A DNA stretch of 64,000 nt from an uncultured Acidimicrobiales bacterium (GCA_963699055.1 CAVOTA010000002.1:1036430-1100429); one strand, 5' to 3'; counted from the stretch's first letter, positions 26,098-49,924 are shown. Numbers and translations are program-made. The notes: generated by a model from the sequence alone, not told the origin.

Positions 26098-26879
26098 GGT
26101 GCCGGCTCCACCAACAGGTCCTGGACCACCCGGCCGATCCTCCCCTGCCGGTCCCACAGGACCGCCTCGGCGCTCCCGATCCCCGGGGCGCCGAACCGGG
26201 TGCGGGCGTCCACGCAGACCCACTCCCCCACCGGCGGTCGCACCAGTGAGACGGTCAGGTCGGGGTTGATGAACAGGGCGGAGCGGAAGTCCAGCTCGGC
26301 GCTGATGCCGTTCGAGAAGTCGGCCGCCGCCACGGCCCGCTGCGCCGGCGAGGGCTCCTCGCCGGCGACGACGGGGAACCGGAGGCGGAACCAGGCGGCG
26401 GCCGGTCCCCGCCGGTCGAACCGTCCGGCCACGAAGCGGATCTCCATCCCCCGGTTGTGGAAGGCGGTGTAGTCCTCGAGGTTCGAGGTGAGCGCGGTAC
26501 CCGCCTCGGGTCCCGCCGGGACCGGCTCCTCGGGCCCCGCCGTCGGCGGGACGGGCAACGTGGGGTCGACCCGGACCCGGAGCGTCCGACCCCACGCGAC
26601 CTCCCGGCCGTCCTGGGTCACCACGGTGTCCACGAGCTGGACCCGGCGACCGGGACGCACCACCCGGCTGGTCACCTCGAGCGGCGTGGTGGCCACCGGG
26701 CGCAGGAGTTCCAGGGTCAGCCGGGTCGGGGCCAGGTCGTCGTCCCTGACGAGACGCTCGACCGACCGGGTGACGGCGGCGGCCACCGGGCCTCCGTGGA
26801 GCGATTCCGGCGACCACGGGCCCCGCGCCAGGTCGGTCGGCACCAGCACGTCACCGTCGGACACGAAGAGCGAGGTCAT
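26094..26879 (-). CDS. Thioesterase-superfamily protein (acyl-CoA thioesterase-like, double hot-dog size)
   Basis: ORF 26094..26891, with ATG at 26879 (alternative GTG 26891). The assignment rests on size, overall sequence character and stop-start coupling to the acyl-CoA synthetase. No strict motif was seen. Confidence 0.6.
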   Translation of the reverse strand: MTSLFVSDGDVLVPTDLARGPWSPESLHGGPVAAAVTRSVERLVRDDDLAPTRLTLELLRPVATTPLEVTSRVVRPGRRVQLVDTVVTQDGREVAWGRTLRVRVDPTLPVPPTAGPEEPVPAGPEAGTALTSNLEDYTAFHNRGMEIRFVAGRFDRRGPAAAWFRLRFPVVAGEEPSPAQRAVAAADFSNGISAELDFRSALFINPDLTVSLVRPPVGEWVCVDARTRFGAPGIGSAEAVLWDRQGRIGRVVQDLLVEPAP

Positions 26880-27975: not shown

Positions 27976-29361
27976 CTAACCCCCGACCGACGCCAGACGC
28001 GCCGCCCGCCGCTCGACCTCGTGACGGGCCCGGTCGACGTCGACGGTGAGCACGACGCCGTCGGCCACCACCGGTGAGCCCCCGACCCAGACGTCGGTCA
28101 CCTGCCGGCTCGAGCCCGACCACACCAGGTGCTCGACCAGCATGGCGTCGTCGAGCAGCGGTACGAACGCCGGGTGGTCGAGGGCGACCGCCACCATGTC
28201 GGCCAGGGCGCCGGGGGCGAGCACGCCGAGATCGGGCCGACCCAGTGCCTCACCGGCTCCCCGGGTGGCGAGGTCGAGTGCGACGGCCGCCGGCAGGGCG
28301 GCGGCGTCGCCGCCGCGGATGCGGGCCAGCATGGCGGCCAGGCGCACCTCCTCCCACAGGTCCAGGTCGTTGTTCGACGCCGGCCCGTCGGTCCCGAGCC
28401 CGACCCGTACGCCGGCGGCCAGCAGGTCGACCACCGGGGCGATGCCCGACGCCAGCTTGGCGTTCGACTGGGGGCAGTGGGCCACGGCCACGTCGGCGGC
28501 GGCGTAGGTGGCGATGTCCTCCTCCGAGAGCCAGATGCTGTGGGCGGCCAGGACCCGGCCGTCGAAGACCCCCGCATCGGCCAGGACCCGGGGCACCGAG
28601 CCGCCGTGCTCGGCGACGAAGGCGTCCCCCTCGTGGGCCGTCTCCGCCAGGTGCAGGTGGAAGAGTGCGCCCCGGTCACGGGCGGCGGCGGCGGTGTCGA
28701 CCAGACCCGGCAGAGGGACCGTGTAGGCGGCGTGGGCGGCGAATCCGACCTCGAGCCGGCCGGCCTCCCCGTCGCGCCGGGCGTGGAAGTCGGCGAAGCG
28801 GTCCAGGCTGGAGGTCCACCACGCCCCTCCCGCCTCGGCCCCCGGCAGCTGGAGCACCCCGGGGGTGAGCAGGGCCCGGCTCCCGGCATGGAGGACGGCG
28901 TCGGCGTTGGCGTCCTCGTGGAAGTACATCTCACACGAGGTGGTCACACCGAAGGCCAGCAGCTCGGCGGCGGCCAGGGTCATGCCCCAGTAGACGTCCT
29001 CAGGCTCGAGGTGGGCCTCGCGTGGCCACAGGACCTCGTGCAGCCAGCGCAGGAGCGGCAGGTTCTCCCCCGTCCCCCGGAACAGGGTCATCGCCGAGTG
29101 GCAGTGGGTGTTCACGAAGCCGGGCAGGAGGGCACCCCGGACGGTGATCTCGGCCGTCGCCGGGTCTCCGGACGCCCGCAGGTCCGAGGGCGTCCCGACC
29201 CGGGCCACCCGGTCCCCGGCCACCTCGACGGCGCCGGGTCGCAGGACGCCACCGTCGACGGTGCACGGGACGACGGCGTCGGCCACGTAGCGCACCACGG
29301 GCGACCCGACCGGGGAGGCGGGCGAGGGATCCCGTTCCTGGATCGGTGGGGCGGACGGCAC
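27976..29361 (-). CDS. Amidohydrolase (MtaD / guanine-deaminase-like metal-dependent deaminase)
   Basis: ORF 27976..29361. Motifs GFVNTHCHSAM (HxH), FHLHLAET, VAHCPQSNAKL and GLGTDGPASNN are present. The GTG start is uncertain. Confidence 0.82.
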   Translation of the reverse strand: MPSAPPIQERDPSPASPVGSPVVRYVADAVVPCTVDGGVLRPGAVEVAGDRVARVGTPSDLRASGDPATAEITVRGALLPGFVNTHCHSAMTLFRGTGENLPLLRWLHEVLWPREAHLEPEDVYWGMTLAAAELLAFGVTTSCEMYFHEDANADAVLHAGSRALLTPGVLQLPGAEAGGAWWTSSLDRFADFHARRDGEAGRLEVGFAAHAAYTVPLPGLVDTAAAARDRGALFHLHLAETAHEGDAFVAEHGGSVPRVLADAGVFDGRVLAAHSIWLSEEDIATYAAADVAVAHCPQSNAKLASGIAPVVDLLAAGVRVGLGTDGPASNNDLDLWEEVRLAAMLARIRGGDAAALPAAVALDLATRGAGEALGRPDLGVLAPGALADMVAVALDHPAFVPLLDDAMLVEHLVWSGSSRQVTDVWVGGSPVVADGVVLTVDVDRARHEVERRAARLASVGG

Positions 29362-29537
29362 ACGGTCACCCTACGGTGCCCGACCGGGGGCCCGCAGGAC
29401 CTCCCGGCCCCCGGAGGAGGGGCCACCGGTCCGGGAGGCGGGGGCTGTCCCACAGGGAGCCGAACCGCTGGTCGAGGGCACCATGCGTGGCATTTCGGCC
29501 GGATGGGTAGCAGGATGACCACCGAGAGTCGCATCGG

Positions 29538-29691: not shown

Positions 29692-29778
29692 ATGATCAGG
29701 TCCTCGCAGTTGGAGAGGGCGTCGGTGGCTGCCCGCACCGGCCGCGCCCTGACCGCCCCCCACGGAGCTCCCGCATGA
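29692..29778 (+). CDS. 28-codon upstream ORF (MIRSSQLERASVAARTGRALTAPHGAPA)
   Basis: The ATG is preceded by AGGAGGG at 7-8 nt. Its TGA stop overlaps the ATG of the downstream gene at 29775 (ATGA). Confidence 0.3.
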   Translation: MIRSSQLERASVAARTGRALTAPHGAPA

Positions 29779-30767
29779 CCAACGCCATGAAGCGCAACCC
29801 CCGCGGGGGCAACGGTCCCCGCGTCATGCTCTACGTCCTCGGCGTCATCGTCGCCCTGATGGCGGCGCTGCTGGTCAAGACGACCGCCATCGACAACTCC
29901 GGCCTCTCGAAGTCCGCCAGCCTGGCGAGCTACAACCCCCTGACGGTCGCCCCCATCGCCAACCAGTCGTCCGACACCGGCGTGCCGGTCCCGCCGATCT
30001 CACCGACGGCGACCGACTCGCAGACCTCGCCCTTCCCCGTGATCACCTGGTCGGCCTCCGGACTGCCGCCGGGCATCACCATCGCCCGCTCCTCGGGCCT
30101 GATCTCCGGCACGCCCACGCTGGCCGGCACCTACCAGGTGACCGTGACCGCCCGGGACAACGCCCACCCGCCGACCTTCGGCTATGCGTCGTTCAACTGG
30201 TACGTCGGCAACATGGCGCCGATCATCTCCAAGATCGTCCCCGTGGTCAGCCAAGGGGTCGGCGGCATCCGCGTGGTGATCACCGGGAGGAACTTCACCG
30301 ACGCCTCGGCGGTCGACTTCGGCGGGATCAACTCGGGCAGCCTGACCGTCAACCGGGTCGGCACCCGGATCGTGACCTTCGCCCCGGCCGATACGGCGGG
30401 CACCGTCGACGTGACCGTCACCGCACTCGGCGGCACCAGCGCCGCGGTCCCGACCGACGAGTTCACCTACCTGTCCCCCCAGATCACGGTCGTCTCGAAC
30501 GTGACCGGCACCACCACGGGCGGCACCCGGGTCCGCATCAGCGGTTCCGGACTCTCCGGGGCCACCTCGGTGCTCTTCGGCGGCGTGGCGAGTCCGGACT
30601 TCCGGGTGCGTCACAACGGCACCCTCCTCACGGCGGTCGCCCCTCCGGACTCCACCGGCACCGTGTCCATCGTGGTCACCACGCCGGGCGGGACCGTGTC
30701 GACCTCCGGCCGCTACGACTTCACCTACGTGGTGACCCAGCCGGCCAACTCCCACAAGAAGAAGTAG
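29775..30767 (+). CDS. Membrane-anchored protein with one putative-Ig (He_PIG-like) domain and two IPT/TIG domains
   Basis: ORF 29625..30767, with ATG at 29775 after GGAG. It has an N-terminal TM helix (VMLYVLGVIVALMAALLV). The He_PIG-like segment is WSASGLPPGITIARSSGLISGTPTLAGTYQVTVTARD. Two ...GG.RV.ITG..F..A.AV.FGG... units follow. Confidence 0.8.
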   Translation: MTNAMKRNPRGGNGPRVMLYVLGVIVALMAALLVKTTAIDNSGLSKSASLASYNPLTVAPIANQSSDTGVPVPPISPTATDSQTSPFPVITWSASGLPPGITIARSSGLISGTPTLAGTYQVTVTARDNAHPPTFGYASFNWYVGNMAPIISKIVPVVSQGVGGIRVVITGRNFTDASAVDFGGINSGSLTVNRVGTRIVTFAPADTAGTVDVTVTALGGTSAAVPTDEFTYLSPQITVVSNVTGTTTGGTRVRISGSGLSGATSVLFGGVASPDFRVRHNGTLLTAVAPPDSTGTVSIVVTTPGGTVSTSGRYDFTYVVTQPANSHKKK

Positions 30768-30859
30768 CGCCCACGGGCGTGACGCCCGGTCACCACTCCT
30801 GACGCCCGACCGGTCCGCCGGCCGGGCGTCGTGCCGTACGGACCGTTCGGGGCGCACCC

Positions 30860-30945
30860 ACTTCCTGCGGCGCAGGCCGAACAGCGCCCACCCGCGGCAC
30901 CTACTTCCTGCGGCGCAGGCCGAACAGCCCCCACCGGCGGCACGC
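30860..30945. repeat. Two tandem copies of a 43-bp unit, each with the 13-bp palindrome CCTGCGGCGCAGG
   Basis: ACTTCCTGCGGCGCAGGCCGAACAGC occurs at 30860-30885 and again at 30903-30928. The palindromes are at 30864-30876 and 30907-30919. Confidence 0.85.
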
Positions 30946-31056
30946 CCCTCAGTCGGTCGGCCAGGGAGCCGGTCGCGGCCGGTGCGGGCGGAACCGTCGG
31001 CCCGGCCGGTACAGCCGAGGTGCCGCACGGGGACCAGCACCGATAGCGTCTGACGC

Positions 31057-31461
31057 ATGACCACGGGGTCCATCGATCCGATCGAGTGGAGTCGCCTGCT
31101 CAGCTGGTACGTCAGCGCCTCGGATCTGCTCGAGGACCTGGACGCATGCCGGATCCTCGCGCATTCCATGCTGGAGGGCTCCACCACCGCCAACGCCGCC
31201 ATGGCCGGCACCCTGGACGAACTGACCAGCCGGGCCGAGCTGTGGCTCGTCTCCCACCCCTGCCCCGAGCCCTGGAACGGTGACCACCTGGCCGCCATCG
31301 TCTTCGGCTACATGACGTTCGGCTCGATCATGGAAGAGGCGGATTGGGACCGTGACGAGGCCGACCGGGTCACGCTGAAGACACTGGTGGCCGAAGGCGA
31401 CCTGTTGGTCGACGAGGTGAGGGAGCTTGTCGTCCGGCTGAACCGCGTCCTCGACCTCTGA
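31057..31461 (+). CDS. Hypothetical acidic protein (134 aa)
   Basis: ORF 31057..31461 has a protein-like composition rather than the Arg/Pro/Gly-rich pattern of spurious frames. No family is recognised. Confidence 0.55.
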   Translation: MTTGSIDPIEWSRLLSWYVSASDLLEDLDACRILAHSMLEGSTTANAAMAGTLDELTSRAELWLVSHPCPEPWNGDHLAAIVFGYMTFGSIMEEADWDRDEADRVTLKTLVAEGDLLVDEVRELVVRLNRVLDL

Positions 31462-31755
31462 AGGGATCCGACCGTCGGCCGCCACCGAGGGGGGCAAGGG
31501 TCCGGATTAGACGTGCCGGACACGGAGCACCCCGTCGGCAGTGGAGGCAGGCTGGGAGGCGGCGGTCGGCGGGTGAACGGACCGGGATGGTTGACGGCCG
31601 GAGCCGACGGCTGCGGGGTGACGGGCCGGCCGCCGTCGCGGACGCCCGTCATCTACCGACCGAGTCCGCCGGGCGGGACGGACCCCGGGGCCGCGGTCCG
31701 GGGTGTCCCGCCGGACGGTCACCCCTTCGGGGGCCGTCCGGCGGGATCCGGGAAC

Positions 31756-34700
31756 CTACGGTGCGATGGTGATCGACAGCACGGCGGTGGCGCTGTCCTG
31801 GTGGTGCAGGGGGGCCGGGCCCTTCTTGTCCAGCACCTGGACAGTGAAGGTATAGGTGCCGGCGAAGGACGCCTTGCCCGAGATGGTCCCCTTGGACTTG
31901 GAGAGCTTGAGCCCCGGAGGGAGGCTGCCCCCGACCACCGACCACGAGTACGGCGGGTTCCCCCACGTCGCCGTCAACGTCGCCGCATACTTCACCTTGT
32001 GGGTGGACGAATAGACGGAGCCCGCCGGCAGCGAGGTCGTCGTGATGGACAGCGGCGGCACGGGAAGGACGGTCAGCGTGGCCGCCGTGGTGTCCACCGA
32101 GCCCACCACGTTGGTGAACACGGCGCGCACCTGCTCGCCGTTCTGGGAGAGCGACGGCGTCACCGTGTAGGTGGTGCCCGTCGCGCCCGACACCGCGGTG
32201 AACGTCGTCCCGCCGTCGGTGGACTCCTGCCACTGCACCGTCGGCGCCGGGGTGCCCGTGGCCGAGGCGGTGAACGTGGCGGGGTGTCCGGTGATGACCG
32301 AGGCGTTGGCCGGGTCCGTCCCCACCACGGGCAGCGTGTCCAGGGTGAGGGTGGCCGCGGTCGACGTCGCCGAGCCCACCGAGTTGGTGAACACGGCCTG
32401 GTACTCGTCACCGGACTCGCCCGGGGAGGTGGTCAGGTCCAGGGTGTCCGAATTCGCCCCCGGGACGTCGGCGAAGGTGGTGCCACCGTCGGTCGACACC
32501 TGCCACTGCACCGTCGGCGCCGGGTTGCCCGAAGCGGCGGCCGTGAAGGTGGCCGTCTGGCCCACGTCGACGAGGACGTCGGTGGGGTCGGTGGTGACGG
32601 TCGGCGACGTGTCCACCGACAGGGTGGCCGACGACGTCGTGGCCGAGCCGATCGAATTGGTGAAGACCGCCTCGTACTGGTTGCCGTCATCGCCGGCTAC
32701 GGCGGCCACATCGAGCGTGGTGCTGTTGGCGCCCACGATCGGCGTGAACGTGGTGCCGCCGTCAGTCGACACCTCCCACTGGACCTCGGGGACCGGGTTG
32801 CCGCTGCCCGCAGCGGTGAAGGTCGCCGTCTGGCCGGCATCGACCGTGGTCGCCACCGGGGACGCGGTCACCGCGGGAGTGGTCCCCACGAAGCCGTAGA
32901 AGGTGAGCGACACCGAGCCGCCGGCCGAGCTGGTGGCGAATGTCGGGGACGACCCGTTCAGCGACCAGGACGAGCCGGCACCGCCGCCTCCGCCCGCACC
33001 GCAGTCCACGCCGGCCGTGGCCGTGCTCCCCAGACCCCCGACGTAGCCGCCACCGCCGCCCCCGTTGCCGGCGGAGTCGCCGAGGGACACGGTGTCGGAT
33101 CCGGGTCCGCCCGGGGTTCCGCTCGGGCTGCCCGACGAGTCGTTCACCCCGCCGGCACCACCGACGTCACCGCTGGTGGCACCCATGCCACCACCCGTAC
33201 CGCTGGGACCGGCACCGGTGCCGTCGAGCGACGGCGACGACGAGCCGCCGCCACCGGTTCCGCCGGTGCCCCCGCCCGATCCGGCACACATCGACTCACC
33301 GCCGCCGCCGCCGCCGGCGGCCACGGCGATCGGGGTGGTCCCGACCTGGCACGACGACCCGACGCACACGGCGCTCGAGCCGCCGCCGCCGCCGCCACTG
33401 CCGTCCGCCCCGCCGGTCCCGAGGCAGGCCGACTCCACGTCGATCCCGGCGCAGTAGTAGCCGTTGCCGCCCGAGCCGCCGTTCGAGTACCCGACGCCGC
33501 CGGCGCCGCCCGTGCTCACGACCCCCGAACCGTGGGGTGCGGTGGCGCCGGTGCAGCCGGCGACCGCGGTGACCTGGGACCCGCCGGACACCGCGTAGGC
33601 GCCGTTCAGGGTGGAGCCCGGACCGCCGGAGCCGCCCGAGTCACTGCTGGCGGCACCACCTCCGCCGCCGCCCGCCCCGCCGACCAGTTTGGCCACGACC
33701 TCGGAGGCGCCTGCCGGAACGTTGGCGGTGGACGGAAGTCCGCAGTTCTGGGTGTCCGTCCAGCTCGACAGTTTGGTCAGCACCTGCGGTCCGAACGAGA
33801 ACTGGTCGGCCGGGACCGGTGCGCTGATGCCCGACGGCGTGGACACGGTCACGTCGACGGTCCCCGACCCCGCCGGCGAGGTCGCCGTGACCGCGGTCGC
33901 CCCGTCAGCGGTGATCGTGCCGGGCACGCCGCCGAAGTCGACCGCCGTGGCACCGTCGAGGTTCGTCCCGGTCACGGTCACGCTGGTCCCACCGGACGTC
34001 GGTCCGGTCGCCGGGGACACCGCGGTGACCACCGGCGGCGGCACCACGGTCGTGTAGGCGAACTGGTCGGCCGGGGACGTCGCCGACGTCCCGTCCGGGC
34101 CGGTCACGGTCACGTCCACCGTCCCCGTGCCCGCCGGCGCCACCGCGGTGATCGACGTCGGGGACGTCACCGTGAACGAGGTCGCCGGCGTCGAGCCGAA
34201 GTCGACCGCCGTGGCACCGGTGAAGTCGCTGCCGGTGACGGTGACGGCGGTGCCCCCGGCCGGCGGACCGGTGGCCGGGGCGACCCCGGTCACCGTGACC
34301 GTGTTGGCGGCGGTCGAGGTGATGGTGGTGGTGGCCAGGGGCGAAGGCGCCTGGTAGGTCGGGTTGTCACCCGAGGCGCAGGCGGAGCAGGACGGGTACC
34401 CGTCGAAGGTCAGGGTGCCGACGATCTGCACCGACGTCACCAGGACGAACTCCGTGAACTCGATGGGCGCCACCGTGCCCACCGCCCCGCTGGCCGTGAA
34501 CTGTGCCGTCACCGTCGGGAGGGTCACGTTGTCCCCTCCGGCGATGCTCGTACTCGGGTTCAGGTAGGTCTCGATGTACGGGTAGACGGTCTTGTAGTTG
34601 CCGGTGTCGATCTGTGCGGTGCAGGCGTCCGCCACGGGTGCCGTGCAGTAGGTGGCGGCGAAGTGGCCGGACGTGGTGGCGTCGCCGCCGGTCACCTGGA

Positions 34701-35355
34701 TCGTGCCGGGGACGTAGGTGAGTCCCTTCGGCACCGGCAGCACGATGGAGAACTGGGACGCGCTGTTGACCGTCACGCCGCTGTCCGACGAGGGCACGCT
34801 GGTGGCGACCGGAGCGATCGACGCCGTGACGGTCGAGCCCTGGAGCGCCGTCGACGGGATGCTCACCGCCGTCTCCACGTCCTGGATCACCCCGGCCAGG
34901 TTCCCGACATCGGCCCCCAGGTACTCGCCCACCGAGGGTGCGTAGGTGAGCGTGGCCGTGGTGCAGTTGCCCGCACTCGGATAGGTGTCACCGGGCGCGC
35001 AGTAGGCGAAGGTCAGCACCTGGGTCCCCGTGGTGCCGGACGCCGGTGTGTAGGTCACGATCCCGTTGGTGGCACCGGCACTCACCGTCGCCGTGCCGCT
35101 GGCGGGCGCCGTCACGATGGTGAGGGATGCGGTGTTGACCGAGGCCGCCCCGCCGGTCACCAGGGTGAGGGCGTCGAACTGGTTGGGTGGTGCGGTGGAC
35201 CCCGGGGTGTACCCGGCGTAGCCGTCGGCGATGACCGGGGCGGCCGAGGCCGGTCCGGCGGTGACGACGGCGAGGCCGGCCACGCCGGCCATCCCCGCCA
35301 CGACGGCGACGGCGCCTCGCGCCAACGACCCTGACCATGCTCGCATCGATCCCAT
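31756..35355 (-). CDS. Large secreted multidomain protein (~1199 aa)
   Basis: ORF 31756..35508, with ATG at 35355 after GGGGGAGG. The signal peptide is MGSMRAWSGSLARGAVAVVAGMAGVAGLAVVTAGPASA. After the N-terminal region come two IPT/TIG units. The Gly-rich block follows (CGLPSTANVPAGASEVVAKLVGGAGGGGGG...SVSLTFYGF, nt 32890-33744). Then come three ...TVQWQVSTDGGTTF... Ig units and a C-terminal LPPGLKLSKSKGTISGKASFAGTYTFTV He_PIG-like unit. Confidence 0.88.
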   Translation of the reverse strand: MGSMRAWSGSLARGAVAVVAGMAGVAGLAVVTAGPASAAPVIADGYAGYTPGSTAPPNQFDALTLVTGGAASVNTASLTIVTAPASGTATVSAGATNGIVTYTPASGTTGTQVLTFAYCAPGDTYPSAGNCTTATLTYAPSVGEYLGADVGNLAGVIQDVETAVSIPSTALQGSTVTASIAPVATSVPSSDSGVTVNSASQFSIVLPVPKGLTYVPGTIQVTGGDATTSGHFAATYCTAPVADACTAQIDTGNYKTVYPYIETYLNPSTSIAGGDNVTLPTVTAQFTASGAVGTVAPIEFTEFVLVTSVQIVGTLTFDGYPSCSACASGDNPTYQAPSPLATTTITSTAANTVTVTGVAPATGPPAGGTAVTVTGSDFTGATAVDFGSTPATSFTVTSPTSITAVAPAGTGTVDVTVTGPDGTSATSPADQFAYTTVVPPPVVTAVSPATGPTSGGTSVTVTGTNLDGATAVDFGGVPGTITADGATAVTATSPAGSGTVDVTVSTPSGISAPVPADQFSFGPQVLTKLSSWTDTQNCGLPSTANVPAGASEVVAKLVGGAGGGGGGAASSDSGGSGGPGSTLNGAYAVSGGSQVTAVAGCTGATAPHGSGVVSTGGAGGVGYSNGGSGGNGYYCAGIDVESACLGTGGADGSGGGGGGSSAVCVGSSCQVGTTPIAVAAGGGGGGESMCAGSGGGTGGTGGGGSSSPSLDGTGAGPSGTGGGMGATSGDVGGAGGVNDSSGSPSGTPGGPGSDTVSLGDSAGNGGGGGGYVGGLGSTATAGVDCGAGGGGGAGSSWSLNGSSPTFATSSAGGSVSLTFYGFVGTTPAVTASPVATTVDAGQTATFTAAGSGNPVPEVQWEVSTDGGTTFTPIVGANSTTLDVAAVAGDDGNQYEAVFTNSIGSATTSSATLSVDTSPTVTTDPTDVLVDVGQTATFTAAASGNPAPTVQWQVSTDGGTTFADVPGANSDTLDLTTSPGESGDEYQAVFTNSVGSATSTAATLTLDTLPVVGTDPANASVITGHPATFTASATGTPAPTVQWQESTDGGTTFTAVSGATGTTYTVTPSLSQNGEQVRAVFTNVVGSVDTTAATLTVLPVPPLSITTTSLPAGSVYSSTHKVKYAATLTATWGNPPYSWSVVGGSLPPGLKLSKSKGTISGKASFAGTYTFTVQVLDKKGPAPLHHQDSATAVLSITIAP

Positions 35356-35787
35356 CGGGTCGACACCTCCCCCTGTCAGCCGCAGGCGATGTCCCCCCCG
35401 GGGGCCCCTGCCGGTCGCGCCCTGCGACGTACAGCAAGGTACGACAACACGGGTTGCTTGGCAACTGATTCCGTTGTAGGTGAGGTGCCCCGGACGACGG
35501 CGTCCCACCAGGTCACTCCGAGGGCAGAGCCGGTCCCACCTGGATAAAGAAGTCTTTACCCCGATCGGCGGTCGCCGGCCGGGTCGCCGGGTGTGCGTGT
35601 CGCTACTGCTCCGTTCATCACCCTTCGTGGTCAGACCACCACGTCATGACGTTTCGTTTGCCGGACGCCGATCGGCGCCATATCTTCGCCGCTGTCGCCG
35701 CAACTGGCGGTGCGGAGGGGACCGGTCGATTCGGGCCCGGGCGACGCGACGCCGACTCCGGGGGGAGCTACGAGGGGGAGGTCCGGC

Positions 35788-38700
35788 GTGACCGAGTCCA
35801 GTGCAGGTGTGACCATGCCGTCCGGTCGGTCGGACGGGGGACGGCGGTCCGGAAGAACACGACGCGCCACGACATGCGGGCTGGTGGCCTCGTTGGTCGC
35901 CGGCGTGCTCGGCGTGACGGCGGCGGCGGTCGTGGTCTCGCCGGGGGTCGCCGGGGCGGCGACCACGCCGACGGCGGCATCGTGGAGCGCCAACCCCAAC
36001 ACCAACTGCGGCACCTACGAGACGGCCAGTCCGCCGGCGGGCACGGTGTCGGCCACCGTGACCCTGTCGGGCGGTGGCGGCGGCGGCGGTGGCACCAATT
36101 CCGGCTCCGGGGGGAGCGGCGGTGCCGGCGGCGAGATCAACAGCACCACGGTCGCCCTGACGCACACGACCGGCACCGTCTCCGTGAAGGTCGGCTGCGG
36201 CGGCAACCCGGGCAACAACGGCGGGATCGACACGACCGTCAACGGCGGCAGCGGGGGTGCCGGGTACGCCGCGGGCGGAACCGGGGGCGACGGGAGCTCG
36301 TCGGTGTCGGTGGACGGCGAGTCGTCCGCCGGAGGGGGCGGCGGCGCGTCCGGTCTCTGTCTCGGCAGTGGGACCTGCACCACCGCGGTCGCCGTGGCCG
36401 GCGGCGGTGGCGGTGGCGGGGCGCGCTGGGACTGCACCGGGTCGACCGGACCCGGGAGCGGTGGCGGCGGCGGGAGCAGTGGGAGTTCGTCGGTCGCATC
36501 CGGCGGCGCCGGGACCAACGGTGACGGGACCGACGGAGCCGGCGGCGGCGGAGGTACGTCGAGCGCCGGCGGCGGCGGGGGCAACGGCTATTCGCACAGC
36601 GGGTCGACCGGTGGCGACACGCCGTACGCCTCGTCGGGCGGCGGCGGGGGCAACGGCAACGGTGGCGAGGCGGGCGCCGGTGGCGGCGGTGGCGGTGGCG
36701 GGTACACCGGTGGTGGTGGTGGTGGTGGCGACAGCTGCTCCACGGGATCGGCGGCCGGCGGAGGCGCCGGTGGCGGATCGTCCGCCGTCAACTCGTCGTA
36801 TGCCGGCACCTTCGCGTACGCGTCCGGTGCGGCCGGCGGCGGCAGCAAGACGGCGGGCAGCACCGGGTCGATCACGCTCACGTGGAACGTGGACAACCTC
36901 TCGGTGACCAACCCCGGCACCCAGTCCAGTGTCTCCGGAACGGCCATCACCAACCTGACCGTCTCGAGCAGCTACGACACGACGGGCGGGAACTCGGTGA
37001 CCACCACGGCCACCGGTCTGCCCGCCGGGCTGTCGATCTCGTCCGGCGGTGTCGTGAGCGGCACCCCCACCACCGCCTGCGCCTGCTCGGTCACCGTGAC
37101 GGCCACCGACAGCCAGTCCCTGTCGGCCTCGACCACCTTCACCTGGAACGTGACCAACACGGTGACGGTGGCCAATCCGGGCACCCACACCAACACGTCG
37201 GGCACGGCCATCGGCACCCTGACGCCCTCGGCCACCGACTCGTCGTCGACGGCCACCATCGCCTCGTGGTCGGCCACCGGCCTGCCCGCCGGGCTGTCGA
37301 TCAACACGTCGACCGGGGCGGTCACCGGCACGCCGACCACCGCCTGCGCCTGCTCGGTCACCCTGACCGCTACCGACTCCAAGGGGTACACCGGGTCGGC
37401 CACCTTCACCTGGAACGTGACCAACACCGTCACGGTGGCCAACCCGGGCACCCAGACCGACACGTCGGGGACGGCCGTCCCGACGCTGACGCCCTCGGCC
37501 ACCGACTCGTCGTCGACGGCCACCATCACCTCGTGGTCGGCCACCGGCCTGCCCGCCGGGACTCTCGATCAACACCTCGACCGGGGCGGTCACCGGCACG
37601 CCGACCACCGCCTGCGCCTGCTCGGTGACCCTGACCGCCACCGACTCCAAGGGGTACACCGGGTCGGCCACCTTCACCTGGAACGTGACCAACACCGTCA
37701 CGGTGGCCAATCCCGGCACCCAGACCGACACGTCGGGCACCGCCATCCCGACGCTGACGCCGTCGGCCACCGACTCGTCGTCGACGGCCACCATCGCCTC
37801 GTGGTCGGCCACCGGCCTGCCCGCCGGGCTGTCGATCAACACCTCGACCGGGGCGGTCACCGGCACGCCGACCACCGCCTGCGCCTGCTCGGTCACCGTC
37901 ACGGCGCGGGACTCGGCCGGCACGACGGGTTCGGCCACCTTCACCTGGAACGTGACCAACACCGTCACGGTGGCCAATCCCGGCACCCAGACCGACACGT
38001 CGGGGACGGCCGTCCCGACGCTGACGCCCTCGGCCACCGACTCGTCGTCGACGGCCACCATCACCTCGTGGTCGGCCACCGGCCTGCCCGCCGGGCTGTC
38101 GATCAACACGTCGACCGGGGCGGTCACCGGCACGCCGACCACCGCCTGCGCCTGTTCGGTCACCCTGACCGCCACCGACTCCAAGGGGTACACGGGGTCG
38201 ACCACGTTCACCTGGAACATGAGCAACACGGTCACGGTGGCCAACCCGGGCACCCAGACCGACACGTCGGGGACGGCCATCGGCACCCTGACGCCGTCGG
38301 CCACCGACTCGTCGTCGACGGCCACCATCGCCTCGTGGTCGGCCACCGGCCTGCCCGCCGGGCTCTCGATCAACACCTCGACCGGGGCGGTCACCGGCAC
38401 GCCGACCACCGCCTGCGCCTGCTCGGTCACCGTCACGGCGCGGGACTCGGCCGGCACGACGGGTTCGGCCTCCTTCACCTGGAACGTGACCAACACGGTC
38501 ACGGTGGCCAACCCCGGCACCCGGACCAGCCCGTCCGGACTGGCCATCGGCACCCTGACGCCCTCGGCCACCGACTCGTCGTCGACGGCCACCATCGCCT
38601 CGTGGTCGGCCACCGGCCTGCCCGCCGGGCTCTCGATCAACTCCTCGACCGGGGCGGTCACCGGCACGCCCACGGTCGCGTGCTCGTGCTCGGTGACCCT

Positions 38701-41700
38701 GACCGCCACCGACTCCAAGGGGTACACCGGGTCGGCTTCCTTCACCTGGAACGTCGGCAACACGGTGACGGTGACCAACCCGGGCACCCACACCGACACG
38801 TCGGGCACGGCCATCCCCACCCTGACCCCCTCGGCCACCGACTCGTCGTCGACGGCCACCATCGCCTCGTGGTCGGCCACCGGCCTGCCCGCCGGGCTCT
38901 CGATCAACACCTCGACCGGGGCGGTCACCGGCACACCGACCACCGCCTGCGCCTGCTCGGTGACCCTGACCGCCACCGACTCGGCGGGCTACACCGGGTC
39001 GGCCACCTTCACCTGGAACATCGACCGACACGGTGACGGTGACCAACCCGGGTGGCCAGACCGACCTGTCCGGCACGGCCATCGGCACCCTGACGCCCTC
39101 GGCCACCGACTCGTCGTCGACGGCCACCATCGCCTCGTGGTCGGCCACCGGCCTGCCCGCCGGGACTGTCGATCAACACCTCCACCGGTGCGGTCACCGG
39201 CACGCCCACCACCGCCTGTGCCTGCTCGGTCACCCTGACCGCCACCGACTCGGCGGGCTACGCCGGGTCGGCCTCGTTCCTCTGGGTCGTGGCCGACACG
39301 GTGACCGCCGAGCCGGTTCCCGACCAGTCGTCGGTGTCGGGTACGGCGCTCACCCTCGCCAGCAGCGGCGCCTCCGACTCGTCCTCGACCGCCACCCTGA
39401 CCTGGTCGGCCACCGGCCTGCCGGCGGGGCTGTCCATCGACCCGTCGACCGGTGCCGTCACCGGTACGCCGACCACGGCCGGCACCGACTCGGTGACGGC
39501 CACGGCCACCGACGGCGCCGGGTACTCGGGCTCGGTCTCGTTCACCTGGACGGTCACCAACGCCGTGACGGTGACCAGTCCCGGTGACCAGTCCGACCCG
39601 TCGGGATCCGCCATCACCACCGTCGACGTACCGGCCGCCGACTCGTCCTCGACCGCCACCCTGACCTGGTCGGCCACCGGCCTGCCGGCGGGGCTGTCCA
39701 TCGACCCGTCGACCGGTGCCGTCACCGGTACGCCGACCACGGCCGGCACCGACTCGGTGACGGCCACGGCCACCGACGGCGCCGGGTACTCGGGCTCGGT
39801 CTCGTTCACCTGGACGGTCACCAACGCCGTGACGGTGACCAGTCCCGGTGACCAGTCCGACCCGTCGGGATCCGCCATCACCACCGTCGACGTACCGGCC
39901 GCCGACTCGTCCTCGACCGCCACCCTGACCTGGTCGGCCACCGGCCTGCCGGCGGGGCTGTCCATCGACCCGTCGACCGGTGCCGTCACCGGTACGCCGA
40001 CCACGGCGTGCTCGTGCGCAGTGGTCGTCACCGTGACCGACGACGCCTCCGTCTCGGGCACCGCCGCCTTCGGCTGGGACGTGGTGAACGTGGTCACCCC
40101 GGCGGTGACGACAGCCCAGACCTCGGTGTCGGGGTCTGCCGTCCCACCGGTCGCCGCTTCCGCCACCGACAGCTCCTCGACGACCACCCTCACCTACTCG
40201 GACGGGGGGACACTTCCCCCGGGTCTGGCCGTCGACCCGTCGACCGGGGTGATCTCCGGCACGCCCACCACGGGCGGGAGCTTCGCCGTGGTCGTCACGG
40301 CCACCGACGGTGCCGGGTACGCCGCCACGGACGCCTTCACCTGGGCCGTCACCGACACCGTCACCGTGACGGGGCCGTCGGCGCAGTCGAACGTCTCGGG
40401 ATCCGCCGCCACCCCGGTCACCGTCACCGCCACGGACAGCTCGACGGTGGCCACGGTGACCTGGTCGGACGGGGGGACACTGCCCCCGGGTCTGACCGTC
40501 GACCCCTCCACCGGGGTGATCTCCGGCACGCCCACCACCGGCGGGAACTTCGAGGTCGTGATCACGGCGACGGACAGCGCCGGGTACGCGGGCTCGGCGT
40601 CGTTCCTGTGGACGGTCAGCAACCTCGTGTCCGGCGCCTCGGTGCCCGACCAGGCCGATCTCTCGGGCTCCCCCATCGCCCCGGTCGACGCCCCGGCGAC
40701 GGACTCGTCGTCCACGGCCACCTTCGACTACACCGACGGCGGCACCCTCCCGCCCGGCCTGTCGGTCGGTACCGGGACCGGCACCATCACCGGCACGCCC
40801 ACCACCGCCGGGACGTACGCCGTAGTGATCACCGTGGCGGACTCGGCCGGGTACGCGGCGACGACCAGCTTCCGGTGGACCGTCACCAACGTGGTCACGC
40901 TCACCACCCCGGAGGGGGTCACCGACGTGACCGGGTGGGCGATCCCCCCGCGGACCCTGGCCGTCACCGACTCGTCGTCGACCACGACGATCACCGGTTG
41001 GTCGGCCACCGGCCTTCCCCCTGGGCTGTCCATCGACCCCACCACGGGCGCCGTGACCGGCACACCGACCACGGCCGGCAACTACTACGCGGTCACCGTT
41101 TCCGCCACCGACGGCGCCGGCTTCAGCGGGTCGACGCACTTCGCCTGGGACGTCACGAACCTCGTGACGGTGGCCCCCATCGCCGACCAGTCGGCACACA
41201 CGTCGTATGCGGTGGCCCCGGTGACCCCGTCGGCCACGGACTCCCAGGTCACACCGGCGGTCACGTTGACCTGGTCCGCCACCGGCCTACCGCCGGGGAT
41301 CGCCGTCGACCACGGGACCGGGACCCTGTCGGGAGCCCCCACCGCGCCCGGCACGTACCCGGTGACGGTGACGGCGACGGACAGCGCCACGCCGCACCAG
41401 TCCGGGTCGACCACCTTCACCTGGTCGGTGACCACGCTCGCTCCGGTCGTCACCGGCGTGACCCCGACGTCCGGTCCGGGTACGGGCGGGACGACGGTCA
41501 AGATCGCCGGCACCGACTTCCAGGGCACCACGGCCGTGGACTTCGGGACGGTGCCGGCCTCGGTGTCGAACGTGAACGCCGCGGGGACCCTGCTCACCGT
41601 GACGTCGCCCGCCCACACCACCGGAGCCGTCGACATCACCGTGACCGCCCGGGGTGGGACCAGCTCGGACGGCACCGCCGACCGGTTCACCTACCTCGGC

Positions 41701-42216
41701 CCGTCGATCAGCGCCATCTCGCCGGCCAGCGGACCGGCGGTGGGCGGCAAGAAGATCAAGATCACCGGCACGGCGCTCACCGGGGCCACCTCGGTGACCT
41801 TCGGCGCCGTGGCGGCCACGGGCGTCAAGGTCAACCATGCCGGCACCCAGGTGACGGCGATCGTGCCGGCCGGCACGCCCGGCTCCGTCGTCATCACGGT
41901 GACCACCCCAGGCGGGACCACCGCACCGGGCCCGGCCGATACGTACACGTACCTGGGCCCGGCCGTCACCGGCGTCTCCCCCGCCGCCGGACCGGCGGCG
42001 GGCGGCACCCGGGTCACGATCGAGGGATCGGGGTTCACCGGGGCGACCACCGTCTCCTTCGGTGCCACCCCGGTCACCACGTTCACGGTGAACAAGGCGG
42101 GGACCACGATCAAGGTGGTGGCGCCGCCGGGCGTGGCCGGGGCGGTCGACATCACCGTGACGATCCCCGGCACCACCTCCTCGCCCGTGGCCGCCGACCG
42201 TTTCACCTATGCCTGA
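35788..42216 (+). CDS. Giant secreted protein (~2141 aa if repaired), interrupted by three +1 single-base insertions
   Basis: It is pieced from ORFs 35710..39036, 37625..39238, 39033..39587 and 39289..42216. The domain order is signal peptide, polyglycine-rich domain, about 17 putative-Ig (He_PIG-like) repeats and 3 IPT/TIG domains. The GTG at 35788 follows GGGGGAGG. The signal peptide is RRATTCGLVASLVAGVLGVTAAAVVVSPGVAGA. The Gly-rich domain spans nt 36007-36890. The repeat consensus is DSSSTATI.SWSATGLPAGLSIN.STGAVTGTPTTACACSVT. Frame changes occur at 37561, 39023-39026 and 39165. Confidence 0.88.
37141..39280 (+). repeat. Eight near-identical tandem 267-nt (89-codon) coding repeats
   Basis: ACCTGGAAC... 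recurs at 37141, 37408, 37676, 37943, 38210, 38477, 38744 and 39011. Spacing is 267 nt, or 268 nt where the extra A is present. Confidence 0.9.
39376..40006 (+). repeat. About 2.4 apparently identical tandem 264-nt coding repeats
   Basis: GACTCGTCCTCGACCGCCACCCTGACCTGG starts at 39376, 39640 and 39904. Copies 1 and 2 look identical by eye, and copy 3 diverges near 40007. Confidence 0.88.
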
Positions 42217-42301
42217 GCACCTCCCGACGCTCCGTGCGGGCGCCGAGCTGACGCCCTCCGTCCGCCGCAGTCCGCGGCCCGACCAGAAAGCGGCTTCCAC
42301 G

Positions 42302-45300
42302 ATGCACACGACCCACCCCACCCGACGTCGTCGGCGGACCCTGGCGGCTGCCGGGCTGTCCGCAGCCCTGGCCGGCGGGATGCTCGCCGTCGCCACCACC
42401 GCGGCCGCCCCACAATTGGCCGGGGCGTCCACCACCGGGGTCGCCGCCACCTGGAGCCCCACGCCGGCATGTGGCTCGTACGCGACCGCCACACCACCGG
42501 CCGGTACCGTGTCGGCCACCATCACCGTGAAGGGCGCGGGCGGTGGAGGCGGCGCGACCAATTCGGGGTCCGGGGGCAGCGGGGGCAGCGGTGACGCCGT
42601 CACCGGGACCGTCCTGCTCAACCACACCCGGGGGGCGGTCTCGGTCGAGCTGGGCTGCGGTGGCGGTGGCGGGACGGAGAACGGCGGGTCCGGCTCCACC
42701 AACGGCGGCGGTGGCGGTGGCGGCTACGCAGCCGGTGCGGCAGGCGGCCCGGCCAAGGCCGAGACGGCCTCCGTCGACGGTCGGTCCTCCGGTGGTGGTG
42801 GCGGTGGGGCGTCCGCGCTCTGCCTCGGCACCACGGGATGCACCACCCTCGTGGCCGTGGCCGGTGGAGGTGGCGGCGGTGCCGGCCGCTGGGACTGCAC
42901 CGGATCCACGGGACCCGGATCGGGGGGCTCGGGGTCGGCGACGGCCACTCCCCCGACCGTCGACCCCGGCAACGCCGGCAGCAACGGTGACGGCACCGAC
43001 GGTGCCGGTGGCGGGGGCGGTACCGCCTCCGCCGGTGGTGGCGGCGGCAACGGTTACGAGCAGAGCGGGTCGGGGGGAGCCGACACCCCGACCTCGTCCG
43101 CCGGCGGGTCCGGCGGGACCGGCGGCTCCACCAGCGCCTTCTCCTACGAGGCCGGCGCGGGCGGCGGCGGCGGGGGCGGCGGCTACACCGGCGGTGGTGG
43201 TGGTGGTGGCGACGCCTGCGCCACCGGCTCGGACGCCGGCGGCGGCGGCGGGGCCGGGTCGTCGACGGTCGTGGCCACCTACAACAGCGCGACCACCTAC
43301 GGCGCAGGTTCTGCCGGTGGCGGCACCTCGACAGCCGGTACGGCAGGGACCATCAGCCTGACCTGGAACGTCGACAACCTCTCGGTGACCGATCCGGGCG
43401 CCCAGTCCGACGTCTCGGGCTCCGCCGTCCCGACCCTCACGATCGCGGCCCCGCACGACTCCACGGGTGGCAACACCGTCACCTTCGGCGAGACGGGCCT
43501 GCCCGCCGGACTCTCGATCAACCCCTCCACCGGGGCGGTCACCGGCACGCCCACCACGGCCGGCTCCTACCCGGTGACGGTCACGGCCACCGACAGCCAG
43601 GCCCTCAGCGCGTCGACCTCGTTCACCTGGACGGTCACCAACCACGTGTCGGTCGCCGGCCCGGGCGTCCAGTCCGGGCTGTCGGGTGCGGCCATCACCC
43701 CGCTCGACCTGTCGGCCACCGACTCGTCGTCGACGGCCACCATCGCCTCCTGGTCGGCCACCGGCCTGCCCGCCGGACTGTCGGTCAACCCCTCCACCGG
43801 GGCGGTCACCGGCACGCCCACCACGGCGTGCTCGTGCTCGGTCACGGCCACCGCCACCGACTCGGCGGGGTTCAGCGGCTCGACCTCGTTCACCTGGACG
43901 GTCACCAACCACGTGTCGGTCGCCGATCCCGGAGCCCAGACCGGGCTGTCGGGTGCGGCCATCACCCCGCTCGACCTGTCGGCCACCGACTCGTCGTCGA
44001 CGGCCACCATCGCCTCCTGGTCGGCCACCGGCCTGCCCGCCGGACTGTCGGTCAACCCCTCCACCGGGGCGGTCACCGGCACGCCCACCACGGCGTGCTC
44101 GTGCTCGGTCACGGCCACCGCCACCGACTCGGCGGGGTTCAGCGGCTCGACCTCGTTCACCTGGACGGTCACCAACCACGTGTCGGTCGCCGATCCCGGA
44201 GCCCAGACCGACGTGTCGGGCACGGCCATCACCCCGGTAGACGCCCCCGGCACCGACTCGTCGTCCACCACCACGCTCACCCTGTCCGCCACCGGCCTCC
44301 CGGCCGGACTGACGATCGACCCGTCGAGCGGGACCATCACCGGCACACCCACCACCGCGTGCACGTGCTCGGTCACGGTGACCGCCACCGACGGGTCCGA
44401 CTACCAGGCCCAGACCACGTTCCCCTGGACGGTGACCGACGTGGTGTCGGTGACGTCACCGGGCGACCAGTCGTCCACCTCGGGCACCCCGATCAGTCCC
44501 CTCACCGTCGGGGCGTCGGACACGTCGTCCACGGCGACGGTGGGCTACAGCGCCACCGGGCTGCCCGGCGGACTCTCGATCGACCCGTCGTCGGGCACCA
44601 TCTCGGGGACCCCGTCGGTGGCCGGTTCGTACTCGGTCGTCGTGACGGCGACCGACAGCGCCGGCTTCGGTGACACCGCCTCGTTCACCTGGGTCATCAC
44701 CAACACCGTGACCATGACCGATCCGGGCGCACAGTCCGACGTGTCGGGGACGGCGATCACCCCGGTCGTGGTGCCGGCCTCCGACTCGCTGGCGGGCGCC
44801 ACCTTGACCTTCTCGGACGGGGGCACCCTGCCCCCGGGCCTGACGATCGACCCGTCGACCGGCGACGTCTCGGGTACGCCGACCACGGCGGGCACCTACA
44901 CGGTGACCGTCACCGCCACCGACGACTCGGACTATGCGGCTCAGGTCACCTTCCCGTGGACCGTCACCAACACGGTGGCGGTGTCCGGGGTCGGGGACCG
45001 TACCGACGGCTCGGGATCGGCCATCACCCCGTACGCGGCCTCCGCCTCCGACTCGTCCCCGGTGGCCACGACATCCTTCTCGGCGACGGGGCTCCCACCG
45101 GGCGTGACCATCGACCCCGCCACCGGCGAGCTCTCGGGGACACCCACGACGGCGGGAACCTATCCCGTCACCGTGACCGCCACGGACTCGGCCGGGTTCA
45201 GCGGCTCCGCCGGCTTCACCTGGACCGTGACCAACTCGGTGGTGGTGACGTCGCCCGGTGACCAGACTCACCACCTCGGGCACGACGATCGCGCCGCTCG

Positions 45301-46283
45301 CCGTGGTCGCCACCGACTCGTCGTCGACGGCGACCGTCACCTTCGGGGACGGGGGGACCCTCCCTCCCGGCCTCGCCGTGAACCCGGCCACAGGAGCGAT
45401 CGCCGGGTCGCCGACGACCGGCGGGACCTACACCGTCGCCATCACGGCCACCGACTCGGCCGGCTTCCAGGGCTCGACGTCGTTCACCTGGCAGGTCGAC
45501 GACACCGTCACCGTGACATCACCGGGTGACCAGACCAGCCGGGTCGGCGCCTCGATCCTCCCGGTGACCGTGGTGGGTGCGGACTCGTCGTCCACCGCCC
45601 ACCTGACGTGGTCGGCCACCGGGCTGCCGAACGGTCTCACCATCGCACCGACCAGCGGGACGATCAGCGGGACGCCCGTCCACTCGGGCGCCTACGCCGT
45701 CACCGTGACCGCCACCGACAGCACCGGCTTCCACAGCTCGGCCTCGTTCACCTGGGACGCCGTCGGCGCCTCGATCACGGGGATCCGGCCCGCCACCGGT
45801 CCGGGTGCCGGCGGCACCAAGGTGTCGATCACCGGGAGCGACCTCGTCGGCGCCACCTCGGTGGTCTTCGGGACCGTGCCCGCCACCCGCTTCACGGTCA
45901 ACACCCACGGCACCAAGATCACCGCCTACGCCCCGGCCGAGTCGGCCGGCACCGTCGACATCGTCGTGACCACGCCCCAGGGCCCCACGCTCCCGACGAC
46001 CGCCGACCGCTACACCTTCACCGGTCCGGTGGTCACGGGACTGGGCAAGACGAGCGGGCCGGCCACGGGTGGGACCAAGGTCCTCATCTCGGGGACCGGG
46101 CTGACCGGTGCCACCGTGGTCCACTTCGGGTCGGTCGCCGTCACCACGTTCACCGTCAACAAGGCGGGGACCAAGCTCACGGTCTACAGCCCGGCGCAGC
46201 CGGCCGGCACCGTGGACGTGACGGTGACCACGCCCGGCGGCACCAGTCCGGTGGTGGCCGCCGACCGGTTCACGGTGACCTGA
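42302..46283 (+). CDS. Giant secreted protein (~1326 aa if repaired), interrupted by one +1 insertion
   Basis: It is pieced from ORFs 42209..45529 and 45258..46283. The domain order is signal peptide, polyglycine-rich domain, about 9 He_PIG-like repeats and 2 IPT/TIG domains. The ATG is at 42302 (MHTTHPTRRRRRTLAAAGLSAALAGGMLAVATTAAA). The Gly-rich domain spans nt 42470-43370 (CGSYATATPPAGTVSATITVKGAGGGGG...GTISLTWNV). The frame change is at 45266-45269. Confidence 0.88.
43622..44210 (+). repeat. About 2.2 near-identical tandem 267-nt coding repeats
   Basis: TTCACCTGGACGGTCACCAACCACGTGTCGGTCGCC starts at 43622, 43889 and 44156. Confidence 0.88.
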
Positions 46284-46799: not shown

Positions 46800-46847
46800 C
46801 TGTTACTGCTCCAGCCTGCTACTGCTCCAGCCCGCTACTGCTCCAGC
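46800..46847. repeat. 3 x 16-bp tandem repeat spanning the stop codon of the downstream-facing gene
   Basis: The plus strand reads CTGTTACTGCTCCAGC CTGCTACTGCTCCAGC CCGCTACTGCTCCAGC. On the minus strand this is GCTGGAGCAGTAGCGG / ..TAGCAG / ..TAACAG, which reiterates the ...LEQ-stop end of gene 46835..47326. Confidence 0.85.
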
Positions 46848-49004: not shown

Positions 49005-49670
49005 TCAGCGGAGAGGACCACGCTCGGCGAACCCGGTGGCGAGCAGCCGGAACGCCCGGTCGACCTCGGACACCAGGTCGTCGCCGTCGCTGCGGGCCCA
49101 ACAGGCGAATGCGGCCATGGCCGCCCCGAGCGCGGCCCGGGCCACCGTCTGGGGTCCGAGGTCGTCCGGCGACCCGCCCATGCGGCCGGCGGCGAACCCG
49201 GCGACCACGTCGCACCACTCCTGGTAGCGCACGGCCGAGTGGGCCACCAACGTGGGCACGGTGCCGATCAGGACCATGCGGATCCGGAGCTCCTCGAGCT
49301 CCCCGGCGCCGAACCGGTTGGTGGCCATCACCGACCGCCGCACCACGTCCATCAGGGGTTCGGTGGCCGGCGCCTCGTCGAGTCGGGCCCGGAGGCGGAC
49401 GAGTTCGGCGTCGAACTCACCCCATACGACGTCCGGCTTCGACTCGAAGTACCGGAAGAACGTGCGCCGCGAGATCCCGACCGCCGCCGCGATCTCGTCG
49501 ACCGTGGTGGCGTCGTACCCCTGACGTGCGAACAGGTCGAGCGCGGCCCGCGCCACGTCCTGGCGCGAGGTGCTCGCCGGGCGCCCGCGCGACGGCTCCG
49601 TCGGCCCGCCCCCGGCTCCCCCGGCCACCGCCGTCACCGCTCCCCGGTCGTCACGCTTCCATTTTGGCAT
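49005..49670 (-). CDS. mftR: TetR-family regulator MftR
   Basis: ORF 49005..49814, with ATG at 49670. The HTH reads ALDLFARQGYDATTVDEIAAAVGISRRTFFRYFESK. It is divergent from mftA. Confidence 0.85.
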   Translation of the reverse strand: MPKWKRDDRGAVTAVAGGAGGGPTEPSRGRPASTSRQDVARAALDLFARQGYDATTVDEIAAAVGISRRTFFRYFESKPDVVWGEFDAELVRLRARLDEAPATEPLMDVVRRSVMATNRFGAGELEELRIRMVLIGTVPTLVAHSAVRYQEWCDVVAGFAAGRMGGSPDDLGPQTVARAALGAAMAAFACWARSDGDDLVSEVDRAFRLLATGFAERGPLR

Positions 49671-49673
49671 CGA

Positions 49674-49690
49674 GTGCACTGAAATTGCAC
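49674..49690. promoter_or_regulatory. Candidate MftR operator (inverted repeat GTGCA-N7-TGCAC)
   Basis: GTGCACTGAAATTGCAC lies in the 67-nt mftR-mftA intergenic region. Confidence 0.35.
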
Positions 49691-49737
49691 CAACCGCACG
49701 AGACCCGGCCCCGGCCGGCCGATCCACCGGAGGACCC

Positions 49738-49887: not shown

Positions 49888-49924
49888 ACCGCGCCGCACC
49901 CGACCCGACCCGCAGACCGACGCC

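Follow-up and report, generated by a model that had tools for sequence, protein, structure and literature searches.

In a 64,000-nt stretch of DNA from an uncultured Acidimicrobiales bacterium (hereafter the window; all coordinates count from its first letter), four paralogous genes that we call A, B, C and D form a cluster whose existence is far beyond chance. He_PIG (PF05345) and IPT/TIG (PF01833) domains are common to all four proteins, and the three large ones, B, C and D, each carry a single glycine-rich domain of about 300 residues. The initial annotation of this DNA had noted the cluster and a polyglycine-rich domain in its three large proteins; we can now specify this domain as resembling the glycine-rich domain (GRD) of ALK and LTK. 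It appears to be a divergent, six-cysteine bacterial relative of that domain (PF12810), with a predicted fold that also occurs in phage tail-fibre and tail-tip proteins. The reading that we favour, with moderate confidence, is that B, C and D are exported and act as fibre-like binding proteins with glycine-rich heads, that the frame changes interrupting C and D are consensus errors, and that A is accessory. The head domain would link the fibre proteins of an uncultured soil lineage, an actinobacterium of the Acidimicrobiaceae type, to the ALK/LTK and phage-fibre fold.

The ALK/LTK-like identity is proposed because hidden Markov models (HMMs) connect the domain transitively to PF12810, because ALK and LTK are the top matches of its profile among PDB sequences, and because a confident structural model finds its PDB matches exclusively in these kinds of fold. 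The three copies in the window are themselves diverged (C and D share 66-67% identity, C and B 42-45%). A profile of these copies and two relatives, searched exhaustively against 1.84 billion representatives of clusters at 50% identity, retrieved 287 proteins at E<=1e-3 (78 of them at E<=1e-10), and in nearly all of these the match spans the full profile of about 300 residues, in varied architectures; the partner domains in the top 50 matches include Big_3_5 (17), TIG (14) and He_PIG (13). PF12810 is matched by two of these 50 representatives. The transitive link is provided by three proteins in which the residues matched by the window family also match PF12810, at more than its gathering score: P0038 (family HMM, E 5.6e-46, residues 46-324; PF12810, 28.3 bits, 75-311), P0185 (E 4e-19, residues 325-575; 33.9 bits, 354-552) and P0209 (E 1e-14, residues 20-271; 27.6 bits, 48-247). 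Many further homologues carry a precomputed PF12810 or PF21722 annotation, under names that include 'glycine-rich protein', and homologues in Brevundimonas phages are annotated 'putative lectin-like domain protein'.

When a 17-sequence profile was compared with PDB sequences, the top seven matches were LTK (7NX0, E 0.008) and six ALK entries (E 0.008-0.03 for the seven, with high composition bias). Between profile positions 21 and 248 the alignments follow the characteristic motifs collinearly, and the order of these motifs is the same in the bacterial domain and in ALK/LTK: first a beta-strand that ends in GxGGxGG, then a ..VG.(G) strand, GGGGGGAS..C/V..., a hydrophobic strand with AGGGGGG after it, and finally GGGGGGY.GGGGG. 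A five-sequence profile gave a chance match only in the same comparison. A word-indexed search for homologues with the raw domain returned three proteins, because its list of candidates fills up with polyglycine words, and again three once the glycine runs had been masked as X; an alignment of 50 full-length family members returned 326.

Structure prediction of the glycine-rich domain, which the initial annotation had called for, points in the same direction. An AlphaFold2 model of the C domain (35962-36897) built on a 35-sequence alignment reached a mean predicted confidence (pLDDT) of 91.1 and a predicted TM-score (pTM) of 0.91; five sequences yielded an unusable model (pLDDT 45.7). It comprises about ten beta-strands; DSSP assigns no class to the rest, which is rich in glycine. 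Foldseek retrieved only three kinds of structure from the PDB, namely the tail tip of mycobacteriophage Bxb1 (9D93 Qa/Qb, the best match, E 3.5e-5), some twenty chains of the ALK/LTK GRD at probabilities of 0.9-1.0, and the fibre of cyanophage Pam3 (7YFW). The ALK/LTK entries (7NX0 and 7NX1 for LTK; 7LRZ, 7MZY, 7N00 and 7NWZ for ALK) are matched with a probability of about 1.0. Predicted viral structures gave 113 matches at E<=1e-3, including cyanophage virion proteins (TM-score up to 0.62, the highest value reached), tail fibres and mycobacteriophage minor tail proteins.

Several observations nevertheless weigh against this assignment and the function that we attach to it. The glycine-rich domains of B and C match no Pfam family even at E<=10, PF12810 included; the window's own domains are without any reported PF12810 score, do not reach its gathering score, and found no match in a direct search of PDB sequences. 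It is possible that the composition-bias filter of HMMER contributes to the missing PF12810 match. With TM-scores of only 0.31-0.42 to the structures of ALK/LTK and Bxb1 (0.33-0.42 for ALK/LTK), the fold match depends on the probability that Foldseek gives and on the fact that no other kind of PDB structure was matched. Finally, the domain is regarded as a ligand-binding head by analogy only, with cytokine binding by ALK/LTK and with phage fibre tips, and Bxb1 gp33, a non-essential 'tail wing brush', has no demonstrated receptor function (PMC12646305).

The likeness to ALK/LTK also has its limits. Both domains would be extracellular, but the bacterial one has six conserved cysteines and longer glycine-rich inserts, and it sits on the Ig-like repeats of a secreted protein, not on a receptor tyrosine kinase; no ligand of the ALKAL type is expected. 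Glycine-rich polyglycine-II domains are structurally known from few proteins, namely ALK/LTK and some phage fibres, with antifreeze and Obg as separate cases. To our knowledge, no cellular bacterial member of the PF12810 type has been characterised or has a known function, although domains of this type are already annotated in bacteria and phages, and literature searches on PF12810 or bacterial ALK-like domains returned nothing relevant. A 2026 survey lists as known glycine-rich polyproline-II-helix bundle domains those of ALK/LTK, the Salmonella phage S16 adhesin gp38 (6F45), the Pam3 fibre (7YFW), and Bxb1 gp33 and gp29 (PMC13243192). S16 gp38 is not among our fold matches, and the Qa/Qb chains of 9D93 are matched without assignment to a particular Bxb1 protein. 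In these phages, as apparently in the window, a distal domain is carried on an elongated fibre built of repeats. Since such a module occupies the business end of phage tail fibres and tail tips, the glycine-rich domain may be taken as a putative ligand-binding head: one cysteine-stabilised domain per protein, in which a beta-sandwich would support polyglycine-II helices. The divergence between the three heads (42-67% identity) suggests three ligand specificities. The small family, of a few hundred clusters, in which such a domain heads long Ig-repeat fibres conserved in an uncultured soil Acidimicrobiaceae clade, could provide concrete candidates for what these domains bind outside animals and phages.

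In each large protein a stalk would hold the head (Table 1, with genes delimited by a codon-position G+C plot and translations). In C and D the stalk would consist of 17 and 9 Ig-like He_PIG repeats, respectively, followed by terminal TIG domains, three in C and two in D, and in B of TIG and I-set domains. Throughout the cluster, He_PIG and TIG score above the Pfam gathering scores (24 bits for He_PIG, 20.9 for TIG and, for comparison with the above, 24.5 for PF12810), bearing out the four paralogues and the domains proposed for them. He_PIG reaches 83 bits in the 5' part of C, 333 bits in eight stretches of its 3' part (E 1.5e-101), and 62.7 and 96.4 bits in the two parts of D; TIG reaches 103.4 bits (E 7e-30) in the 3' part of C and 58.3 bits in D. 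B has TIG at 70.2 bits (E 1.5e-19), He_PIG at 47.1 bits (E 3e-12) on its C-terminal 110 residues and, as an addition to the domains listed initially, I-set (PF07679) at 87.1 bits in three stretches (E 9e-25; gathering score 23.7 bits). At the DNA level, the stalk of C contains a 267-bp tandem array at 37007-40011 (11.3 copies, 86% identity). Most of its near-identical He_PIG repeats (36900-40000) have a CxC motif (PTTACACSVT) where the more diverged ones have AGT or GGS; the motif may form an inter-repeat disulfide or a metal site. The N-terminal domain of B (about 310 residues) has no Pfam match. Among GTDB species representatives it has 30 relatives, all of them in metagenome-assembled genomes (MAGs) of uncultured Acidimicrobiales or Acidimicrobiaceae, mostly long-read 'MFD' assemblies along with two short-read SPRUCE peat MAGs, and we regard it as lineage-specific. 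Elsewhere in the family, P0157, a 3167-aa metagenome protein from ENA, has two glycine-rich domains in tandem (residues 59-355 and 566-862), indicating that the head can be duplicated within one protein.

Table 1. Positions in the window of the cluster genes, their parts, the sites of frame change and neighbouring genes. Domain limits are from local HMMs (for B, also from Pfam) and are listed from N- to C-terminus; GC1, GC2 and GC3 denote the G+C fraction at the three codon positions.
Feature	Position	Strand	Description
IleRS	17930-21205	-	isoleucyl-tRNA synthetase
Amidohydrolase	27979-29370	-
Gene A	29775-30767	+	330 aa
A, hydrophobic segment	~aa 14-40		N-terminal signal-anchor
A, He_PIG	29958-30218
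A, TIG	30219-30473, 30477-30731
ORF O	31057-31461	+	134 aa, acidic, isoelectric point (pI) 4.2; GC1/2/3 0.66/0.44/0.90
Gene B	31756-35355	-	1199 aa, intact
B, signal peptide			N-terminus
B, N-terminal domain	34306-35235
B, TIG	33790-34296		two domains
B, glycine-rich domain	32896-33774
B, I-set	32026-32880		three Ig domains
B, He_PIG	~31759-32040
B/C spacer	35356-35787		432 bp, between divergent B and C, from gene coordinates
Gene C	35788-42216	+	conceptual product 2141 aa; three +1 frame changes
C, signal peptide			N-terminus
C, glycine-rich domain	35971-36891
C, He_PIG	36907-41442		17 repeats
C, TIG	41443-42213		three domains
C, mechanical ORFs	35710-39036, 37625-39238, 39289-42216
C, frameshift site 1	37558-37570	+	GGGACTCTCGATC vs sister repeats GGGCTSTCGATC; surplus A at 37561
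C, frameshift site 2	39020-39033	+	ATCGACCGACACGG; one surplus base ~39023-39026, at repeat junction
C, frameshift site 3	39162-39174	+	GGGACTGTCGATC; surplus A at 39165; repeat position identical to site 1
Gene D	42302-46283	+	conceptual product 1326 aa; one +1 frame change
D, signal peptide			N-terminus
D, glycine-rich domain	42440-43372
D, He_PIG	43388-45767		9 repeats
D, TIG	45771-46280		two domains
D, mechanical ORFs	42209-45529, 45258-46283
D, frameshift site	45263-45275	+	CAGACTCACCACC; one surplus base near 45268
MftR	49008-49880	-	MftR-type TetR regulator
MftC	49888-51423	+	radical-SAM/SPASM enzyme

Export of the four proteins is suggested by a single hydrophobic segment, at the N-terminus, in each of them and not just in the small protein, the only one to which a transmembrane helix had previously been ascribed. 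B, C and D would be made with a cleavable signal peptide, judging by eye from the AGA or ASA that follows the hydrophobic segment. In keeping with the initial annotation, none of the four proteins has an LPXTG-like motif or a hydrophobic C-terminal segment of the kind expected for sortase anchoring. As no covalent anchor signal is present, the proteins would be released or held non-covalently. They are acidic and rich in threonine, serine and glycine. Giant exported Ig-repeat proteins are commonplace in bacteria, and B, C and D share with the He_PIG/Big/TIG adhesins and the sortase-anchored proteins of the MSCRAMM type a signal peptide, an N-terminal head, a long stalk of near-identical tandem Ig-like domains and a stalk copy number that varies between relatives. 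They differ from these proteins in having no LPXTG or C-terminal sorting signal and in their head, which is glycine-rich and not of the DEv-IgG or lectin type. Thirteen related loci, from MAGs or metagenomes, share the syntenic order amidohydrolase-B<>C-D, and the synteny is kept in chromosomal contigs of MAGs that reach 4.1 Mb in length; the C orthologues have 14-25 He_PIG repeats. A default hmmsearch missed the obvious N-terminal glycine-rich domain of P0155 (2853 aa, locus L004), probably through the bias filter. Thus, where the domain seems 'missing' at some loci, the reason is technical rather than biological, and a lack of matches to such domains calls for caution.

C and D are interrupted in the given sequence and do not form intact open reading frames (ORFs), as is apparent from the mechanical ORF list, the GC3 frame plot and the translations. 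This escaped the initial annotation, whose size for B (1199 aa) holds directly while those for C and D (2141 and 1326 aa) hold only after correction. The GC3 signal jumps frame near 37560, 39020 and 39165 in C and near 45265 in D, in all four cases by +1, and the original frame of C is restored after its third site. Deleting single bases at 37561, 39026, 39165 and 45268 yields uninterrupted products of 2141 and 1326 residues, with no stop in 3467 codons, and the shifted segments retain a GC3 of 0.97-0.99. Sites 1 and 3 read GCCGGGACT, where the sister repeats have GCCGGGCT in C and GCCGGACT in D, that is, GGGA compared with GGG and GGA. The apparent insertion therefore resembles a G/A difference of which both alleles were written, one after the other, and site 2 (G+A) and the D site (C+T) may be read as merged alleles too. 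An antisense gene at 37600-38976, suggested by GC1 and GC2 values that fit the minus strand, was rejected since the plus-strand frame gives perfect He_PIG repeats; a low GC1 with a high GC2 is expected for sequence rich in threonine and serine. Programmed +1 frameshifting and phase variation were likewise rejected, because the sites are neither slippery nor repetitive and the orthologues are single-frame.

It is conceivable that the cluster is decaying, with C and D as genuine pseudogenes and only A and B functional. The four frame changes would be the expected sign of such decay, and C and D of the closest relative (L002) and of a metagenome locus (L001) contain many frame changes as well. 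However, the codon-position G+C signal is undiminished in the shifted frames, no in-frame stops remain after correction, all four shifts are of one sign with the three in C summing to a restored frame, and the sites resemble merged alleles. Moreover, the orthologues are single-frame in seven related loci (L003-L009), among them P0155, the C orthologue called in L004, with 25 He_PIG and 3 TIG domains. The loci with many shifts (L001, L002, L020, L022 and L029) also have them in B or in the amidohydrolase gene, L029 being shifted everywhere, housekeeping genes included, which speaks for assembly quality rather than biology. Even within the window, an unrelated gene for an AMP-binding acyl-CoA synthetase (24375-26100, minus strand) carries a +1 shift near 24915-24925, in a CCCCGGGG run (C4G4), and its GYYRDPG|STAQRVRNGWYWTGD stretch reads through only after removal of one base, suggesting indel errors elsewhere in this sequence. 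Given these observations, we infer from the assembled sequence that the four frame changes most likely arose as errors in the consensus of a long-read metagenome assembly, and we regard decay of the cluster as very unlikely. There is a practical lesson here, in that merged-allele indels in the near-identical tandem repeats of long-read MAGs make intact giant genes resemble pseudogenes.

The product of gene A matches He_PIG (47.8 bits, E 2e-12) and TIG (56.8 bits, E 2e-15), ends in a basic C-terminus (..SHKKK), and has a single hydrophobic window in the whole protein, at the N-terminus. It aligns with residues 1768-2055 of C, the last He_PIG and two TIG domains, at 45% identity over 288 residues (E 3e-64), and thus represents a paralogue of this C-terminal module with a membrane anchor, presuming that the anchor stays uncleaved. 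The initial annotation had suggested that A tethers the secreted paralogues to the cell surface. This idea is weakened because A adjoins the cluster in only 4 of the 14 loci with B-C(-D) order (the window, L002, L003 and L005), a count of adjacency at the locus itself; in L001, L004, L007, L008 and L020, B lies directly beside the amidohydrolase gene. A would therefore be an accessory rather than a conserved partner of the fibre proteins. Its TIG domains also pass the cut-off of NCBIfam NF058597, 'choice-of-anchor Z repeating domain' (42 bits against 30), a repeat named for its co-occurrence with alternative anchoring signals. The acidic ORF noticed initially within the cluster, ORF O, is confirmed. 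It has no signal peptide and no Pfam or NCBIfam match, is adjacent in only 2 of the 14 loci, and has a homologue outside the window in L002 only (E 2e-37); it probably is a genuine gene, though one outside the conserved set of the cluster. Between A and ORF O lies a 43-bp tandem repeat (30854-30943; 2.1 copies, 93% identity).

The same relationship between A and C could be taken to indicate that the proteins are structural components of the envelope, such as an S-layer-like or sheath coat, with A as a membrane dock for C and D through TIG-TIG pairing. Indeed, A is a transmembrane-anchored copy of the terminal He_PIG-TIG-TIG module of C, C and D end in TIG domains without another anchor, and their acidic, Thr/Ser/Gly-rich composition is that of many coat proteins. 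Yet A adjoins the cluster in only 4 of the 14 syntenic loci and ORF O in only 2, the Pfam and NCBIfam scans revealed no S-layer or SLH-type domain, and the wide variation in He_PIG number among C orthologues fits adhesin stalks better than a lattice. A coat is thus unlikely. A different origin is raised by the head, which in structure matches phage tail-tip and fibre proteins best and has some phage proteins in its family, as in the Brevundimonas phages: the genes could derive from a phage, as the receptor-binding module of a prophage or tailocin resident in the chromosome. The context here is a cellular chromosome, and the proteins have Sec-type signal peptides together with Ig-like stalks, as is typical of surface proteins of cells; the flanks of the genes are housekeeping and metabolic (IleRS, MFS transporter, amidohydrolase, mycofactocin genes) with no phage genes nearby, the G+C of the genes is that of the flanks, and the synteny is stable across some 13 species-level genomes, all of which makes a phage origin exceedingly improbable. 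A more elaborate scenario can also be drawn up. The heads would correspond, on the cellular side, to the polyglycine-II receptor-binding domains of phages, each of the three fibres would bind a ligand of its own, in the cell envelope or a glycan, on other organisms or on particles, A, where present, would dock them to the membrane through TIG-TIG pairing, and the domain would be a divergent cysteine-rich bacterial subfamily near the prokaryotic or phage stock from which the metazoan ALK/LTK ligand-binding domain came. Taken as a whole, we consider this scenario rather doubtful.

The divergent orientation of B and C is as first described, and the spacer between them presumably holds the promoters of both genes. 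G+C is 71-79% across the whole window. Around the cluster lie genes for IleRS, an FGGY kinase, a major facilitator superfamily (MFS) transporter, an acyl-CoA thioesterase and the amidohydrolase; a GNAT acetyltransferase, the regulator MftR of the mycofactocin system and MftC, a radical-SAM enzyme, are encoded downstream. The mycofactocin genes (49008-51423) begin about 3 kb beyond the cluster, and mftA/mftB probably lie in 49742-50218. Directly downstream of D, a 16-bp unit, CTGCTACTGCTCCAGC, is repeated three times at 46800-46847, in a region with no clear gene call.

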